IMG/VR virus record: IMGVR_UViG_3300031578_000002 | Coordinates: 1-60,289 of that record | DNA: 60,289 nt | Strand: one strand, 5' to 3' | DNA from: a virus | Shown: one piece after another, positions 1 through 6,254 of the stretch | Position numbering within the stretch: position 1 is the first letter of the stretch | Layout: the number at the start of each line of letters is the position of its first letter | Made by a program: the position numbers and the translations under genes | The notes under the pieces: generated by a model | The model's input: the letters and a program-made list of their open reading frames with translations, nothing else | Told to the model about the DNA's origin: nothing | The model's database searches: none

Positions 1-9
1 AAAAACTAC

Positions 10-130
10 ACATAACAACAAATATAAAACATTGCTGTCGTGATTTCTATTTACTTATACGTAATTATTTTAATTTTGTTACATTTATTTGCATTTATGT
101 TGCAATATTTTATATTTGCGACCGTTAGCA
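10..130. repeat. attC-like hairpin element 1
   Basis: ACATAAC (10-16), arm CAAATATAAAACATTGC (19-35), loop, complementary arm GCAATATTTTATATTTG (102-118), 5 nt, GTTAGCA (124-130). Confidence 0.75.
58..82 (-). promoter_or_regulatory. ECF-type promoter GTAAC-N16-CGTA inside the hairpin 1 loop
   Basis: Same motif and spacing as six other sites that lie upstream of genes. Confidence 0.55.
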
Positions 131-136
131 ATAATG

Positions 137-376
137 CTATTTTACCCAGTTATATCTTACAAAATATCTACGTCCAAAAAAGTCTGTATGTGTTTGCCAA
201 CCTCGTTTATATATTTGATACCATTTACGAGGTAATAACTGTATTTTAGTGTCAATTTCAATAATACCAGAAGCACTATTGCTAACACTAAATAAATCCA
301 ATACTTGCTGTTTTGCTTGTTTTTCGGTTATCAGCTCGTAATGTAGGTCATCAAATATTTTATCTATCTTTTTCAT
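137..376 (-). CDS. small cassette-encoded hypothetical protein (start MKKIDK)
   Basis: ATG lies in the loop of hairpin 2; the ORF reads through the arm and core (LDLFSVSNS) and stops just before the left core. Confidence 0.65.
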   Translation of the reverse strand: MKKIDKIFDDLHYELITEKQAKQQVLDLFSVSNSASGIIEIDTKIQLLPRKWYQIYKRGWQTHTDFFGRRYFVRYNWVK

Positions 377-407
377 AGTCGTACTGTATTTATTATTTAC
401 GTTAGCA
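280..407. repeat. attC-like hairpin element 2
   Basis: TGCTAAC (280-286), arms 291-304 and 381-394 (12/14 complementary), GTTAGCA (401-407). Confidence 0.65.
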
Positions 408-626
408 AACATAACCACGAAGGTCGTAGCATTGGCAACTATGTGTTTCTATATTAATTATATAGTTATCACTTATGTCGCAAATGTATCTATCATGTCT
501 ATATTTACTATTTTTATTACTTTTTAAATTATTGCAAGTGTTACAATTACGTTTGCTAACAACAGGTTTAACCAATAAAGGTTTCCTGCGTAGGCGGTCT
601 GTAATGCGTTTAATAAAATTTTTCAT
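402..626 (-). CDS. small Cys-rich cassette-encoded protein
   Basis: CxxC...C...CxC; starts in the loop of hairpin 3; the TAA stop is inside the GTTAG core at 402-404. Confidence 0.65.
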   Translation of the reverse strand: MKNFIKRITDRLRRKPLLVKPVVSKRNCNTCNNLKSNKNSKYRHDRYICDISDNYIINIETHSCQCYDLRGYVC

Positions 627-683
627 ATCTTGATAATTTAGTTGTTTTAATTCCTTTACTGGTCAAACCTGCGGACGTTAGCG
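554..683. repeat. attC-like hairpin element 3
   Basis: TGCTAAC (554-560), arms CAGGTTTAACCAATAAAGG (563-581) and CCTTTACTGGTCAAACCTG (653-671), 5 nt, GTTAGCG (677-683). Confidence 0.8.
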
Positions 684-897
684 GTAATGCTTAAAGACAG
701 CAACACCGATAGGTATTGATATTAATGAGATTATAAACGCTGTTGCCAAATAAGGTCGTCCAGTAAGTTTATATTCTATTCCAATGTAAGTAAGGCTCAA
801 TACAGCCATTGCGAAAATACAAATACAAAGCACTACCGCTAAACACACGGTATAAAATATGCCTTTCTTTGTCGTTAAATTTAATTTTCAGTTCCAT
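678..897 (-). pseudogene. frameshifted cassette gene for a 72-aa, 2-TM membrane protein
   Basis: Removing one A from 841-843 gives MELKIKFNDKERHILYRVLAVVLCICIFAMAVLSLTYIGIEYKLTGRPYLATAFIISLISIPIGVAVFKHYR*, ending at the TAA in core 678-680. Confidence 0.7.
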
Positions 898-967
898 ATT
901 TAAGTTATTTGTTTATTGATAATTGTTACTTCTAAAACGGCACATTTCATACCGTCAACCGTTAGCA
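837..967. repeat. attC-like hairpin element 4 (1-nt insertion in left core)
   Basis: CGCTAAAC (837-844), arms 847-863 and 939-955, 5 nt, GTTAGCA (961-967). Confidence 0.75.
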
Positions 968-1240
968 CCCATTTAAGGATGCACAGTAATCAGTTAAGAA
1001 CTTTATATCTTCATCTCGCATTTCCCAACAACCTTTTTCTGAATTTTGGAAACCACGTCTATATTCTACTACATCGCAAGTGTCATGATGTAGTCCTTGA
1101 TAATCTTTGTTGTATTTAGGGTGTTTTGTATCCCTTACAGCAGCGCACCCACAACGAATGTCTAAAATAAAACGGGTGCTAACAACAGGTATATTTAATG
1201 CCTGTGTTTCTGCGTTATTCAAGTTTTCTGCTTCTTTCAT
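962..1240 (-). CDS. small cassette-encoded hypothetical protein
   Basis: Starts in the loop of hairpin 5, reads through the arm (ALNIPVVST), TAA stop in core 962-964. Confidence 0.7.
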   Translation of the reverse strand: MKEAENLNNAETQALNIPVVSTRFILDIRCGCAAVRDTKHPKYNKDYQGLHHDTCDVVEYRRGFQNSEKGCWEMRDEDIKFLTDYCASLNGC

Positions 1241-1300
1241 AATTTCTGCTATTTTAATAAGTTTGTAATTCTAAATCAGGCACTAAACATAACAGCACCT
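1177..1300. repeat. degenerate/truncated attC-like element 5 (array end)
   Basis: TGCTAAC (1177-1183), arms 1190-1204 and 1277-1291, no right-hand GTTAG core. Confidence 0.55.
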
Positions 1301-1342
1301 AAAAAACAGGCGGGGTTGGTTGTTTTATCGGTTTTCGATTTT

Positions 1343-1669
1343 TTACACATAGTTTTTATCAAGCCAATATACTACTGGTGCCATATCTTCATCACCACCA
1401 TACACATCATTTACATATTCTGCTCTTGTATCAATCCAAGAGCCAATATCATACCACCAACCTTCGGGTAAAAACATTTCAGCTGCTTTATTTGCCTCTT
1501 CAGGGGTTTTAAAAATAAATGTTTCTTCACACATTAATACGGTTATACCTATAGGTTTAAAACCAGCAGCTTTAATGTCATTTAAAAGCAAACTATTTGG
1601 TGTGCCATAATTATCATGTACTTCCCATAACTTGCTTTCATGTTCATCATAAACGTCAAAATTGCACAT
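1343..1669 (-). CDS. hypothetical acidic protein
   Basis: 108-aa ORF with a host-type promoter at 1686-1716. Confidence 0.7.
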   Translation of the reverse strand: MCNFDVYDEHESKLWEVHDNYGTPNSLLLNDIKAAGFKPIGITVLMCEETFIFKTPEEANKAAEMFLPEGWWYDIGSWIDTRAEYVNDVYGGDEDMAPVVYWLDKNYV

Positions 1670-1700
1670 AATATTTTATTTTTTGTAAATATAATAATTA

Positions 1701-2852
1701 TTATTGAATTTCCAAATCTCCTTTATCGGAATTACTGGTGAAACAAGAATCTGTTTTTAACCAATTACTGATTTCTGTTGGTGATAAATATTTAATGTCA
1801 CCATTAATCGTAATAGGTATTTTTCCATTAATATGATCAGTACAGGTTATAACGAGATTACTATTTGAGTATTTATTGTAATATTTATCACAAGAAATTG
1901 CATATTTTAATTGATTGTAATCTAAAATACTCCTTCTAAACTTACCTTGATAGCCAGTATCTACATTAGTTTCCAGAGGATTTATTTTTATTATTGAATT
2001 ATCCAAATCTTCATTACTTAAAAATCCATTCCCGTGTCGTGTTTGATATGCACGAGTTATATAATATGTGTCGATGATATTATGTTGGTCTTTGAATATA
2101 ATATCATCAATGATTTTAAATGCATTTTTGCTTGTGGTATTACTTCGGGTTACATTTGGAAAGAATCCATGATCCATATCAAGCATAATTCCTTGACTAC
2201 CTTCAAAAATTAAATCACCGTTTCCGAAATATACATCATTAATACTATTAACTATCTCATGTTTTTGAATTAAATCATCACATGCTTCTTTAAATTTCAA
2301 CTCTTCCTCATCAATTATTCGATGATAATTTTTGTCATATAAATCAAAAGCTGCTTTATAATATTTTCTTATTAATCTAATCTTTTCATCACGAATTGTT
2401 GGATAAAGCAAATCCCTCATATGTAAATGATAATGATCCTCATTGCGTTGAATTGTCGTGCCGAAACCAACTCCAACAGTACCATTTATTTTAAAATTAG
2501 CATCATTCAAATTCATTAATTTATCAAAGGGTGTTGTTATCAACGCATTTGCATTATAATACACCATAGGTATTGGTCCTAATTTTCTTAAAATATTACC
2601 TTCTTTAAAAACACCCATTGGGTCAACAGTACAATACTCCGACCAATATGTTGGGACGCCCTTTAATGTGCCTGAACCAAAATTTGAAAATACGTGTCTT
2701 ATGTCATTATAAACCACTGTATGTCCAACTTGATGACCTCCAGAAAATCTAACAACTAATGGATTTTTTGCATCAGAACATTTATTATTTGCCACGGAAC
2801 CTTTGCCTTCATCTCCATATAATGCACCAAGAATTATAGAAAATTTATTCAT
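1701..2852 (-). CDS. divergent adenylosuccinate synthetase-like protein (PurA family, not PurZ)
   Basis: GDEGKG, GGHQVGHTV, FEGSQG..LD..G.FPNVT.SNT, TRAYQTRHGNG. Confidence 0.85.
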   Translation of the reverse strand: MNKFSIILGALYGDEGKGSVANNKCSDAKNPLVVRFSGGHQVGHTVVYNDIRHVFSNFGSGTLKGVPTYWSEYCTVDPMGVFKEGNILRKLGPIPMVYYNANALITTPFDKLMNLNDANFKINGTVGVGFGTTIQRNEDHYHLHMRDLLYPTIRDEKIRLIRKYYKAAFDLYDKNYHRIIDEEELKFKEACDDLIQKHEIVNSINDVYFGNGDLIFEGSQGIMLDMDHGFFPNVTRSNTTSKNAFKIIDDIIFKDQHNIIDTYYITRAYQTRHGNGFLSNEDLDNSIIKINPLETNVDTGYQGKFRRSILDYNQLKYAISCDKYYNKYSNSNLVITCTDHINGKIPITINGDIKYLSPTEISNWLKTDSCFTSNSDKGDLEIQ

Positions 2853-2873
2853 AAATATTAATTTTTATTATAG

Positions 2874-2899
2874 TACGATAATTACAATCATTATGTTAC
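2874..2899 (-). promoter_or_regulatory. ECF-type promoter GTAAC-N17-CGTA
   Basis: 21 nt upstream of the PurA-like start. Confidence 0.7.
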
Positions 2900-2925
2900 A
2901 AAAAAGCCATGAATTTCTTCATGGC
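2900..2925 (-). terminator. intrinsic terminator after the vWA gene
   Basis: GCCATGAA-tttc-TTCATGGC stem with a U-tract on the minus strand. Confidence 0.7.
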
Positions 2926-2951
2926 CTTTAACTTAAATATTTATTATTCAC

Positions 2952-3872
2952 TTAAAGCTTCATTACTCCTTCATCAGGAGTCATTGCAAGTGCACCAATA
3001 TTTGACTTAGCAAGTGCGGTTGTTACTACTCCAGCAATCTTAGTATCAAAACCACTAACTACTTTTGTAATATCAACTCCATGTTGTACTGCAATAATGG
3101 TAGCGATAGTAGCACAAATAGCATGGTAATCATCAAGAACAATTAATCTTTCACCTAACATATCCTTCCAATAGCCTAAAACGTCGGGGTCATTACAATA
3201 ACTACCTTCATTAATGTGTATGTGATATACGTTATAAAGTCGTTGTGCTTCCTCAAGAAGTTGTTTGTCAGTAACTTCTTCACCTTGGGTATAGCCAAAC
3301 ACTTTTCTCAAACTATTTTCGTTTACTATATCCCAACTTGCTTCATCGCCAATGGTAAATAAAAATCCCTTTTGATTGCGTTTTTCAAAGCAATCAATAC
3401 TTGTATGCCTACCAGCAACAAGCCAAGCCAGAAGATAAGACTCTTTATCTTGGCCGCCGCCACTTTGAAGAGCAACACCTGTTAGCCATTTATCGAGTTC
3501 TTCTGTACCGGATTCGAATTGACCAACCTGAATCGGTGCTTTCACATGTGTGTTATGATCATTAATTGCACCAAAAAGAACTTGTGGATGTTCAATACCA
3601 TTGTCAATAATGGTGTTCATTAATGTTGGAAGTTCATTCTTTACAATATCTTCTGGAATTCTACCCATGCTACCAGTATCATCAAGAAATACCATAACTG
3701 CAATTGATTCTGGGTGATCATCACTATCACGAGATTCACGGATAGTGATTTTATTGGGCATCATATCATCAGAAGCATCTTTTGAAAAGATATCATCCGA
3801 TGATTTGGTTGCATAACCCCTACTTGATGACAAGTGAGTATATGCATCGTCAGACCATTTACTGTATCCCAT
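2952..3872 (-). CDS. vWA (MIDAS) domain protein
   Basis: FLDDTGSM, GGGQDKESY, FTIGDE. Confidence 0.8.
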   Translation of the reverse strand: MGYSKWSDDAYTHLSSSRGYATKSSDDIFSKDASDDMMPNKITIRESRDSDDHPESIAVMVFLDDTGSMGRIPEDIVKNELPTLMNTIIDNGIEHPQVLFGAINDHNTHVKAPIQVGQFESGTEELDKWLTGVALQSGGGQDKESYLLAWLVAGRHTSIDCFEKRNQKGFLFTIGDEASWDIVNENSLRKVFGYTQGEEVTDKQLLEEAQRLYNVYHIHINEGSYCNDPDVLGYWKDMLGERLIVLDDYHAICATIATIIAVQHGVDITKVVSGFDTKIAGVVTTALAKSNIGALAMTPDEGVMKL

Positions 3873-3874
3873 AA

Positions 3875-4024
3875 TTATTCAGGATTTTGTGTTTCACTAA
3901 CCTCAGCAGCAGTTTCAGTGGCAGCTTCGGTGTTATCACTTGTGTTGTTTTCAACACTTACTTCTTCTTGTTCGTTAGCCAAATCTTCAAATGATTTAAC
4001 CTCAGAATACTCTTTCATTCCCAT
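3875..4024 (-). CDS. 49-aa acidic low-complexity protein (not in the ORF track)
   Basis: MGMKEYSEVKSFEDLANEQEEVSVENNTSDNTEAATETAAEVSETQNPE*; abuts the vWA start; ECF promoter upstream. Confidence 0.7.
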   Translation of the reverse strand: MGMKEYSEVKSFEDLANEQEEVSVENNTSDNTEAATETAAEVSETQNPE

Positions 4025-4060
4025 AGTTTAAAATTTAATTGTTAATATTAAAGTTAATTA

Positions 4061-4086
4061 TACGTATATTTTCATTATTATGTTAC
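4061..4086 (-). promoter_or_regulatory. ECF-type promoter GTAAC-N17-CGTA
   Basis: Upstream of the 49-aa/vWA pair. Confidence 0.7.
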
Positions 4087-4967
4087 AAATCTAGTAAATA
4101 AAATTTACTTTCAAAGTTCTTTTTTAATAATTCTCGATATTGGACATATTCATCTTTGGTATTTTTATGTTTTGTTAACAAAAAATTTAACATCGATTGA
4201 TTTACATCCTTATCAACCCTTAGCTTAGTTCCAGCAGCTGATCTATCACCAAGTAAATATATTGCAATTTTTTTACTTAATTCTAAGTCAATATCTGGCG
4301 TTGCTATTTTTTCGCTAAATAATGTTGTGGGATACCACATTTTATATTTTGCTGATATTGTATCTGCTTTTCTACCAATGATGTTCATATGATAAAACGA
4401 AACAATTATTATACCGTGTGTTTCGGGAACAACAAAAACTGTTGTTGGATTCAAACCCATGTGCACATAATTTACTTGTCTCATCCACACGCAAAACTCA
4501 AACATTCTACTGAATATCCAGTTTACGTGTAACTGTGGTAACTTTTGTCCTGTTAGTGGAACTGATCTATCTTTTAAATTAATCGTTAGTTTATTCTGTT
4601 CTAAATGCATACTTTCTGGCAGGTAACGATGAAAACCAACAGACGCTTTGTCAGATAACAACATTAATTTATTATAGTTATCAACAGATTTTTTTATTAA
4701 GTTACGATTAAGATTAGTAACAACATATTCGATTCTTTTTTCAAACACCCTAAATTCACCGGCTTCATCAACATATTTAATACCATTTTCGAGAATGTCC
4801 TTATAATTATTCATCTTACTCATAGCTTCCACAGCAAGTGAATTTGAATTATAATCAGGATGAATTAACTTACTATACATAATGTATTGTTTTTTCCAAT
4901 CACCAGAAAAGATATCTGAAGGTTTTGTTGATTTAGATAATTTATTAATTAATTCAATATCTGTCAT
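4083..4967 (-). CDS. J-domain-like (HPD) plus degenerate protein-kinase-like protein
   Basis: YSKLIHPD at the N-terminus; kinase C-lobe-like YVHMGLNP..VFV and DIDL. Confidence 0.6.
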   Translation of the reverse strand: MTDIELINKLSKSTKPSDIFSGDWKKQYIMYSKLIHPDYNSNSLAVEAMSKMNNYKDILENGIKYVDEAGEFRVFEKRIEYVVTNLNRNLIKKSVDNYNKLMLLSDKASVGFHRYLPESMHLEQNKLTINLKDRSVPLTGQKLPQLHVNWIFSRMFEFCVWMRQVNYVHMGLNPTTVFVVPETHGIIIVSFYHMNIIGRKADTISAKYKMWYPTTLFSEKIATPDIDLELSKKIAIYLLGDRSAAGTKLRVDKDVNQSMLNFLLTKHKNTKDEYVQYRELLKKNFESKFYLLDL

Positions 4968-5200
4968 AATTTATTTGTTTTTCGTTCTTGCATTAAACTA
5001 TTTATAAAATCGATGATATTGCCTAAACATTGTTTTTCAAAAACAGTGCTTGGTTCGGGGAAAAATGAATATTGTCTCCATCTTCCAAACCATTTGACCT
5101 CGCCTAATTTAATTGGCGTTGTGTCTTTAGTAAGTACATTAAATTTTTTTGTTTTACCAGTATCTTCATAAAGGTTAAATGTAATCCATTTTGAGTTCAT
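4964..5200 (-). CDS. hypothetical phage protein
   Basis: Start MNSKWI; LGEVKWFGRWRQYSFFP..TVFEKQCL. Confidence 0.7.
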   Translation of the reverse strand: MNSKWITFNLYEDTGKTKKFNVLTKDTTPIKLGEVKWFGRWRQYSFFPEPSTVFEKQCLGNIIDFINSLMQERKTNKL

Positions 5201-5216
5201 ATTTAAAATATTAAAT

Positions 5217-5480
5217 TTATTCGTGTGATTCTGATTCATATCGCAATTGTTTTTCTTCAAATGTTACGATACTGACTTCGCCGCAATAGTTTTCAAAAGT
5301 CATTTTCAAATCATCACGAAATTGTTCTAATTCCTCATGACTATCAAAATAAAAGTCATTCTTTAATTCCCAAGTTGCATCAAACATGCCAACACTGGGG
5401 TCACCATATGATGTAATATAAAATCCGCTTACCTTTATTATGCTCATGATATTATCAATTACTTTATCTGTTATTTCCAT
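5217..5480 (-). CDS. hypothetical protein
   Basis: Start MEITDK, directly downstream of an ECF promoter; GDPSVG motif. Confidence 0.7.
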   Translation of the reverse strand: MEITDKVIDNIMSIIKVSGFYITSYGDPSVGMFDATWELKNDFYFDSHEELEQFRDDLKMTFENYCGEVSIVTFEEKQLRYESESHE

Positions 5481-5499
5481 TGTTTTTGTTTTTACAATA

Positions 5500-5524
5500 T
5501 ACGTTAAATTATTAAAAAGGTTAC
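5500..5524 (-). promoter_or_regulatory. ECF-type promoter GTAAC-N16-CGTA
   Basis: 19 nt upstream of ATG 5480. Confidence 0.7.
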
Positions 5525-5569
5525 CAAAACGACGCAAATTGTTACAAACACTTCATTTATAAGTGATTG

Positions 5570-5601
5570 CAAATATAGTGAAAATATTATTAACTTACAA
5601 G
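5570..5601 (-). promoter_or_regulatory. Bacteroidota sigma70-type promoter CTTG-N20-TATATTTG
   Basis: Matches the -33/-7 consensus. Confidence 0.6.
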
Positions 5602-5624
5602 TATTTACATTTTTAAATAACTTT

Positions 5625-5649
5625 GTAACAAAACAAAAAATTATTCGTA
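5625..5649 (+). promoter_or_regulatory. ECF-type promoter GTAAC-N16-CGTA
   Basis: Divergent promoter upstream of 5691. Confidence 0.7.
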
Positions 5650-5690
5650 TTATTGCAAAATAAAAATAATTTTAATTTAAAACTATAAAT

Positions 5691-6254
5691 ATGAAGATGA
5701 GACAATTATTACAATATAAGGTAGCACTACTAGTTATATTTTTTCTATCTACAAGTATGACTAGTGAAAGCAACACAGATATGTTACATATTTTTAATAA
5801 TACAAAAGAATTATTATATTCGAACATATGGGGTAGCATTTATAATTCAGAAAAAAGACAGTGTGACAACACACCAACAATTACTGGTGATGGCTCACAT
5901 ATATTACCAAAAAGAGCCAGTAAACATCGATGGATTGCAATTAGTCAAGAAATGCTTTATAGCAAATATCGTCAAAATTTATTATTAGATAAAGGTTGTG
6001 GTTTATATGACGGTAAAATACGATATGGCGATACTATTTGGGTTGATAGTCCAAATAAGAATATAAATGGTTGGTGGGTTGTTCATGATACGAAAAACGT
6101 TACTTATCGCAACAGTATTGACTTTTTACAAACTAAAGGTGATGGTTCGTTGTATAATAATAATCCGTTATGGAATGGTAAGTTTGAAAACATTAGAATA
6201 TACAAACTTAATAACATTAGTTATAAACAATATTATGCAATAATCAATGATTGA
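5691..6254 (+). CDS. 3D-domain (MltA/RlpA-like) cell-wall protein
   Basis: N-terminal hydrophobic segment; YN...QCD.TP.ITGDG, WIAISQ, VHDT...SIDFL. Confidence 0.7.
   Translation: MKMRQLLQYKVALLVIFFLSTSMTSESNTDMLHIFNNTKELLYSNIWGSIYNSEKRQCDNTPTITGDGSHILPKRASKHRWIAISQEMLYSKYRQNLLLDKGCGLYDGKIRYGDTIWVDSPNKNINGWWVVHDTKNVTYRNSIDFLQTKGDGSLYNNNPLWNGKFENIRIYKLNNISYKQYYAIIND

Follow-up and report, generated by a model that had tools for sequence, protein, structure and literature searches.

The hairpins at one end of this viral DNA are probably, at a probability that we put near 0.6, structure-specific recombination sites of an integron-like cassette system that has its genes on the folding strand and resides in phages of Flavobacteriia and related Bacteroidota. 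The stretch analysed (the window, 60,289 nt) comprises the first 60 kb of an IMG/VR phage contig of 140.8 kb, whose estimated completeness is 46%.

Results

An array of hairpins and small genes at the contig end

Five hairpin elements of about 125 nt (H0-H4) and four minus-strand ORFs occupy window positions 11-1300. The plus strand carries the core GTTAGC at 124, 401, 677 and 961 and the core GCTAAC at 281, 555 and 1178, with the variant GCTAAAC at 838. Seven of the 19 GTTAGC hexamers in the window lie within its first 1.2 kb, and the pattern GCTAAC-N90-120-GTTAGC was observed twice in the window versus 0.02 expected. The array is composed as follows.

H0, 11-129, minus strand: hairpin; plus-strand cores CATAAC (11-16) and GTTAGC (124-129); arms 19-35/102-118
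Cassette 1, 125-401, minus strand: core to core; ORF1 at 137-376 (79 aa), ATG in the H1 loop, peptide LFSVSNS
H1, 281-406, minus strand: hairpin; arms ~287-310/383-400; ORF1 ATG at 374-376
Cassette 2, 402-677, minus strand: ORF2 at 402-626 (74 aa), ATG in the H2 loop, peptide VKPVVSK, stop formed by the TAA of core 401-406
H2, 555-682, minus strand: hairpin; arms 563-581/653-671; ORF2 ATG at 624-626
Cassette 3, 678-961, minus strand: leader frame 769-897 (42 aa, ATG at 897) and 2-TM body frame 678-848, stop formed by the TAA of core 677-682
H3, 838-966, minus strand: hairpin; arms 847-866/936-955; ATG at 895-897; left core GCTAAAC
Cassette 4, 962-1300, minus strand: ORF4 at 962-1240 (92 aa), ATG in the H4 loop, peptide LNIPVVST, stop formed by the TAA of core 961-966
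H4, 1178-1296, minus strand: hairpin; arms 1185-1203/1277-1295; ORF4 ATG at 1238-1240

An earlier note on this DNA had the four minus-strand ORFs starting in hairpin loops and reading through one arm and the GTTAGC core, and the coordinates, the ORF list and the folds confirm this: ATGs lie in the loops at 376, 626, 897 and 1240, from where the frames traverse the 3' arm and enter the core as GTT-AGC (Val-Ser). Its count of three genes in four ending at the TAA of the left core is likewise borne out, the TAA within the next GCTAAC being the stop of ORF2, of the ORF3 body frame and of ORF4; ORF1 stops at a TAG (137-139) 8 nt before the core. Three of the four peptides that it listed are literal translations (LFSVSNS, VKPVVSK and LNIPVVST), but LYRVLAVV is not, as the third gene has no single open frame here and is split in the assembled sequence by a 1-nt insertion, the extra base of GCTAAAC (838-844), which lies within 841-843. 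In other metagenomes, three protein clusters (P0099-P0101) contain relatives of this gene whose product of 72-74 aa is intact (MELK...LYRVLAVV...KHYR), and the extra base is absent from their DNA. Because relatives without it encode an intact protein, LYRVLAVV is the ancestral reading of the third gene, not a literal translation of the window.

Downstream of H0 the array is truncated by the contig end. The H0 loop holds no usable ATG and carries GTAAC-N16-CGTA on the minus strand. The upstream edge of the array is marked by H4, in which the gene-sense 5' box (TAAC and spacer) is missing; intact versions with TAAC-GTCC-GCAGG are present in L150-L152, and H4 is 84% identical to the element that precedes gp033 of Cellulophaga phage phi19:3. 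No second array emerged from a scan across all 140.8 kb of the contig, where the remaining matches were low-scoring background, and Rfam, which includes no model of attC, gave two chance matches only for positions 1-6000 (evalue mode), none of them on the hairpins. The four ORFs and the next gene gave no significant or meaningful Pfam match, and their sole PHROGs match is that of PHROG 33482 to ORF4 residues 1-27, the leader only. By blastn against other phages the hairpins match and the genes do not, with matches to Cellulophaga phages phi19:3 and phi13:2 and to two huge phages.

Site architecture, folding strand and start codons

The same architecture fills arrays in many flavobacterial and jumbo phage contigs, and a pattern scan of IMG/VR followed by a hairpin detector uncovered such arrays in many large viral contigs, with as many as 14 elements per 8 kb. 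The elements, read on the coding strand, have a common layout consisting of a 12-nt X' that ends in TAAC, a spacer of 4-5 nt (often GGTT), a stem of 17-25 bp, a loop, a T and GTTA-N6-(A/C)GT (= X). The order TAAC, spacer, stem, loop, 1 nt, GTTA was found in 71 elements, which come from 19 loci and make up our sample; in the window H0-H3 fit this order and H4 is without the 5' box.

All five window elements fold as long hairpins, with stems that run unbroken on the minus strand but have interruptions on the plus strand. H2 forms a continuous 20-bp stem on the minus strand only (-38.8 kcal/mol, z = -5.9, versus -32.9 kcal/mol, z = -2.2, on the plus strand), and H1, the weakest stem of the window, has a folding z of -2.96. 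The stems are ungapped over their 17-25 bp, the recurring irregularities being G.T wobbles and not bulges, and no conserved extrahelical bases (G and T) were found in them. On the strand with the longer 5' spacer the stem mismatches number 129 G.T versus 19 A.C, a count left unbiased by the detector, which scored the two alike. This strand is the coding strand, as 62 of 71 gene bodies have a sense frame that exceeds every antisense frame in length. Such coding-strand wobbles are equally expected from a function at the RNA level.

Each X has its complement in the X' behind the same gene and not in the X' ahead of its own hairpin. All four window units show this, with closing stems formed by 124-138 and 272-286 in cassette 1 (15 bp with one G.T on the minus strand), 401-412 and 549-560 in cassette 2, 677-691 and 828-844 in cassette 3, and 961-972 and 1172-1183 in cassette 4; a compensatory change from AA/TT to GG/CC separates the closing stem of unit 1 from that of unit 3. 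The complementarity extends over 12 bp and is specific to cognate ends. In 50 consecutive element pairs from other contigs, cognate X and X' pair at at least 7 of 8 variable positions in 28 cases, versus 9% for non-cognate pairs, and position 11 of the pairing is a G.T in 34 of the 50, while the two flanks of one and the same element pair like random pairs.

The elements form two size classes, short (~75-95 nt) and long (~110-135 nt). Genes of the short class start 0-40 nt after X in 29 of 32 cases; in the long class the ORF start lies inside the loop in 19 of 39, a loop start being typical of only about half of the long-loop sites, and the window is unusually pure in this type (4/4 gene-bearing sites). 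GTT stands in frame as a codon in 19 of 20 loop-start genes (P ~1e-8). At the other end of the unit, the TAA of TAAC is the stop of 20 of the 71 downstream ORFs, and another 21 end at a TAA overlapping the first base of X'. The ECF-like promoter motif GTAAC-N16-CGTA is not general to the loops, occurring in 1 of 71 and in the H0 family only, and no T-runs were found at the hairpins. Readings of the hairpins as terminators or RNase III sites were rejected, since ORFs begin within the hairpins and continue through them.

Relatives differ by whole units

Among close relatives the differences come in whole units of one hairpin and one gene, cut at TAAC. Units common at 83-99% identity have unrelated DNA on both sides, the breaks fall at AAC...TAACG(G/T), and the sequence common to each break amounts to 5-9 nt (CTAACGGTT). 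Between phi19:3 and phi13:2 the block AAC-spacer-hairpin-GTTA-X-gp033-X'-TAACGG is 99% identical with different genes on both sides, and a two-gene block lies on opposite sides of the gp033 unit. In phi19:3, phi13:2, phi18:3 and phi46:3 four different cassettes, each with its own X'-TAAC, join one conserved sequence, which precedes a 237-nt gene and a tyrosine recombinase gene. The third cassette of the window (H3, body and TAA) recurs at ~90% identity in two other metagenome contigs, L136 and L138, between different neighbours, with a different gene upstream of CTAAC and a different hairpin downstream of TAACGT. Further exchanged units are ORF2 with H2 in L139, ORF4 with an H4 variant in L147, and one unit common to L034 and L063. 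The one gene per core-to-core unit described in the earlier note is thus also the unit that moves, as the third cassette in two other contigs and the other pairs demonstrate.

The hairpin is inherited with the downstream gene in all 5 informative cases and with the upstream gene in none. The classical orientation, with the crossover between G and TTA on the coding strand and the hairpin owned by the upstream gene, was rejected, as no comparison favoured it and five gave the opposite. Taken together the alignments suggest that cassettes are exchanged by recombination at these sites.

Hairpin modules also recur with different DNA on both sides. Copies of H0 are 94% identical in L139 and 82% identical in LR756500, those of H2 are found in 7 other viral contigs, and both sets are bounded by TAAC and GTTA; a copy of H1 in L146 is 91% identical and bounded by TAAC and TTAGC. 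One crossover point alone does not account for such modules.

A candidate recombinase

In 5/5 array-bearing IMG/VR contigs longer than 120 kb, the array is followed on its downstream side, at a distance of 0.5-1.7 kb, by a gene in the same direction for an Xer-like tyrosine recombinase of 262-289 aa. Among solved structures XerA/XerC-like proteins come nearest to this recombinase, with IntI4 and XerD next, and in comparison with IntI4 (2a3v) it has 34 residues where IntI has 82, the ~48-residue IntI-specific insert being absent. No PF00589 match or tyrosine recombinase gene was found on the 140.8-kb contig, which is no argument against the model, since the contig end cuts off the array on its downstream side (coordinate 1). 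An adjacent Xer-like gene is absent in the huge phages LR756500 and LR756502 and in the 61-kb contig G007, all of which have arrays. The Cellulophaga phages encode only an integrase of 418-428 aa, which is SAM_5-type, different from the Xer-like type and located beside a repressor gene; the 418-aa protein was considered as a candidate cassette enzyme, and it may simply be the lysogeny integrase.

The main rival to recombination sites places the function of the hairpins at the RNA level. As regulatory cassettes of the PeSL type, which are known in T4-type phages (PMC2839356, PMC4122927), they would set starts in the Shine-Dalgarno-poor messages of Bacteroidota, couple or insulate ORFs, or stabilise processed mRNAs via the X/X' stem that closes 5' to 3' end, with shuffling as a by-product of homologous or microhomology recombination. 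Such a role covers the wobbles, which occur at fixed positions and take the form of G.U on the mRNA strand, and the start codons in A-rich open loops, and recombination inside a repeat would give hairpin families with different flanks on both sides. It does not cover the exchanges, which occur across only 5-9 nt at both ends and so across too little sequence for ordinary homologous recombination, nor the X/X' closing stem, which is hard to explain by translation control, nor the tight linkage of an Xer-like recombinase to the arrays, and the loops lack a general promoter motif. On this evidence we consider the RNA-level explanation unlikely.

Common leaders on different protein bodies

The ORF4 body belongs to a family of 24 homologous clusters that carry at least 8 different N-terminal leaders or none (MSRF.., MDRYF..), with the leaderless homologues in P0016, P0022 and P0024 starting at their own ATG. 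Conversely, the ORF4 leader alone (first 20-27 residues, 68-100% identity) is found in ~46 further protein clusters, in a subset of which the identical 20-aa leader MKEAENLNNAETQALNIPVV precedes unrelated bodies, among them Cys-rich proteins and a further protein that matches DUF4326. The sharing ends right after GTT-GTT-A, and the next three codons fit X (ANN NNN NGT, read as x-x-[S/R/C/G]). The leaders of ORF1 and ORF2 also recur on other bodies: residues 1-36 of ORF1 are found at 89% identity on a different body in L146, and ORF2 has a full-length relative in L139 and its leader alone in L140-L145. The H2 leader frame is open in 8/8 copies, with several synonymous changes in the unpaired part of the loop, and these leaders are presumably translated. 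ORF4 and phi19:3 gp033 first seemed to have wholly unrelated interiors, a view that was softened because their last ~25 residues look alike.

The prediction that the sites would stamp a recurring peptide on unrelated small proteins was thus right: a family leader does occur on unrelated bodies (the ~46 clusters), but the loose motifs LxxxxVS and LYxxLxxV are not the recurring unit, which consists of family-specific leaders ending in ..VV-x-x-[SRCG]. The check that accompanied this prediction, whether the DNA of leader-sharing proteins lies in such hairpins, came out positive for 3/3 sampled genes, each in an intact hairpin with its own X and X'.

Leaderless homologues of the ORF4 body would also suit an origin of the hairpins as selfish miniature palindromic elements (MITE- or REP-like) that insert at TAAC/GTTA-like targets between genes, with the ORFs secondarily extended into the repeats, and so would the occurrence of identical hairpins several times per genome and across genomes with different flanks. 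However, no target duplications flank the sites, X pairs with X' at the far end of the gene and not across the element, R boxes occur with no hairpin between them in four Cellulophaga phages (TAAC-AAT-GTTATATAAC), and hairpin and gene move together as whole units, all of which makes a selfish element quite improbable. A chance origin of the phasing of ORFs and hairpins in AT-rich sequence, with small ORFs that would not be genes, would agree with the lack of a significant Pfam match for the four ORFs and with a PHROGs match to the ORF4 leader alone, but it is already contradicted by homologue and frame statistics (24 homologous clusters for the ORF4 body and 3 intact homologues for ORF3; frame kept in 19/20, P ~1e-8; leader frame open in 8/8 H2 copies; sense strand more open than antisense in 62/71 bodies) and has almost no likelihood left.

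Discussion

If the hairpins are recombination sites, the mobile unit would run from the C of one TAAC to the TAA of the next and contain one 5' hairpin and one gene. Because the genes lie on the folding strand, the site would itself be transcribed and translated; at long-loop sites the loop would supply the ATG, and the 3' part of the loop, the 3' arm and GTT-Axx would encode a leader of 20-30 aa. Since the units are bounded between TAA and C on a strand that is both folding and coding, the last three bases of every unit would provide a ready-made TAA stop on the coding strand. At the level of sequence comparison, the inference of the earlier note that the recombination site doubles as coding sequence, leader and stop is supported. 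With X paired to the X' of its own unit, a circular intermediate would rebuild a fully paired site, as integron cassettes do. The likely enzyme is the small Xer-like tyrosine recombinase just downstream of the arrays, in this contig beyond the cut end, which would cleave between TAA and C in folded single-stranded DNA. Integron chemistry cannot be assumed, because both the IntI-specific insert and conserved extrahelical bases are absent.

More tentatively, and with less than even odds in our judgment, Bacteroidota phages may run an integron analogue of their own around a minimal Xer-like recombinase, in which the site acts as a portable expression signal. Startless cargo would be placed in frame behind the ATG and leader of the site and closed by the TAA of the cassette, and the hairpin would serve both as the single-stranded DNA substrate and as a translation-start structure in the mRNA.

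Were the sites recombined, they would represent a second, phage-borne answer to the capture and expression of promoterless genes, with a simpler recombinase and with sites that are read as protein, and would account for the turnover of many small ORFan genes in jumbo and flavobacterial phages. Natural structure-specific sites would then be seen to lie within coding sequence. The Cellulophaga baltica phages phi19:3, phi13:2, phi18:3 and phi46:3 offer a cultured, tractable system. For annotation, common leaders give false homology between unrelated proteins, as in the match of PHROG 33482 to ORF4 residues 1-27 only, and repeated hairpins probably break assemblies at arrays.

Comparison with known systems

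Like integrons and CALINs, the arrays have folded sites with basal ...AAC and GTT... boxes, an unpaired spacer and an inner stem, and folding is strand-specific; each cassette has complementary ends, from which a circle would reconstitute the site, and each unit holds one small promoterless gene. Arrays of close relatives differ by whole units cut at the AAC box, with gain, loss and reordering of cassettes at the sites evident from comparison, and a tyrosine recombinase of the Xer/IntI clade lies at the array end in what becomes the integron layout once polarity is aligned. The attC site of an integron folds from its bottom strand, and cleavage falls between A and C of 5'-RYYYAAC-3', which forms the 5'-terminal box of that folded strand (Nivina et al. 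2020, PMC7439510). Here the best-folding strand has a 5' TAAC and the units are bounded between TAA and C, so that the coding strand corresponds to the bottom strand of attC and the genes run opposite to those of classical cassettes. Once an array is turned to match integron site polarity, the recombinase takes the position of intI and points away from the array, and only the cassette genes are reversed. The description of the system in the earlier note as the inverse of classical integron cassettes is supported by the coding-strand wobbles and by the inheritance of the hairpin with its downstream gene.

Several features depart from the classical integron. There the ORF is on the top strand with attC 3' of it, whereas here it is on the folding strand with the site 5' and translated, supplying start, leader and TAA stop. 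The recombinase of the phage arrays lacks the IntI-specific insert that forms the additional domain, the sites have fixed G.T wobbles in place of conserved extrahelical bases, the complementarity of the ends is 12 bp against 6-7, loops extend to ~70 nt and contain coding or promoter-like sequence, and transcription runs toward the recombinase, not away from it.

Clusters of attC sites in phages have been reported by Qi et al. 2023 (PMC9892861), who predicted 17 in phage genomes, one of them in Polaribacter phage P12002L. The site P12002L_attC1, predicted with HattCI and cloned, reads TAAC-GGCT-stem-T-GTTA and has the same design as the elements described here; in an IntI1 assay it gave no verified recombinants, whereas P12002L_attC2 did recombine (PMC9892861). 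The available text of that report makes no mention of Bacteroidota, Flavobacteria or Xer, contains nothing on translated sites, and does not report the phasing of genes to sites. We found no description of this cassette system in the literature.

The nearest phage precedent is the PeSL cassettes of T4-type phages (Arbiol et al. 2010, PMC2839356; Comeau et al. 2014, PMC4122927), in which small novel ORFs of hyperplastic regions lie between repeated motifs containing a stem-loop, which also delimit the modules that are shuffled. A PeSL consists of an early promoter with a terminator-like stem-loop and is thought to act via homologous recombination (PMC2839356, PMC4122927). The pair of early promoter and terminator-like stem-loop does not flank each ORF of the present array, which differs further in having no general promoter, no T-run, ORFs that read through the stems, 5-9 nt at the breaks and a dedicated recombinase linked to such arrays. 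Synthetic attC sites placed in coding sequence (Nivina et al. 2020, PMC7439510) offer a different parallel, being structure-specific sites inside an ORF where only the structure and the AAC triplet are constrained; those were an engineered demonstration, whereas the natural sites described here appear to be routine N-terminal coding sequence.

Array edges and the H0 site

Two features lie at the upstream side of the hairpin-gene array:

Window 1296-1342: region abutting the arm of hairpin H4, in whose loop cassette gene ORF4 starts; the gene-sense 5' box (TAAC plus spacer) is missing
Window 1343-1669: 108-aa gene without a hairpin, adjoining the H4 edge

In the window the H4 arm is preceded by ...TTTTTTAGGTGCTGTTATG... 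and the box is absent; in intact H4 copies from other contigs this region reads TAAC-GTCC-GCAGGTATG... Absence of the box marks the upstream array boundary. At the other side the contig terminates within the array, at window position 1, and a 202-kb relative (L139) likewise terminates within its own array (contig positions 1-2037), which may reflect either assembly breakage at the repeated hairpins or location of the arrays at a genome terminus.

The hairpin H0 carries a distinct loop motif:

Window 58-82, minus strand: GTAAC-N16-CGTA in the H0 loop, oriented with transcription

The H0 loop lacks a usable ATG, and the LR756500 copy retains the motif as GAAAC-N16-CGTA. Because motifs of this type are confined to the H0 family among the 71 elements compared from other contigs, this family may represent a version of the hairpin site that carries a promoter.

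Leaders, cargo and related phage sites

The PHROGs match of ORF4 (window 965-1240) to phrog_33482 is confined to residues 1-27, the hairpin-encoded leader; homology-based clustering can therefore group unrelated proteins through a common leader.

Sites or their boxes also occur in Polaribacter and Cellulophaga phages:

L149:38036-38935: DNA methyltransferase gp54 with flanking sites, Polaribacter phage P12002L
L127:2880-2925 and equivalent places in L125, L126 and L128: recombinase-proximal junction, Cellulophaga phages

A minimal site (54-56 nt, n=2) of the same design as the window hairpin sites lies on each side of gp54, and the cassette ends X (GTTACCTA) and X' (TAGGTAAC) pair, so cargo also includes larger genes, such as methylases. 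The Cellulophaga phage junction reads TAAC-AAT-GTTATATAAC in all four contigs, its boxes separated by 3 nt with no hairpin between them and followed by a perfect 10-nt palindrome resembling an empty cassette body, with X fused directly to X'; this TAAC-AAT junction may be the array insertion site.
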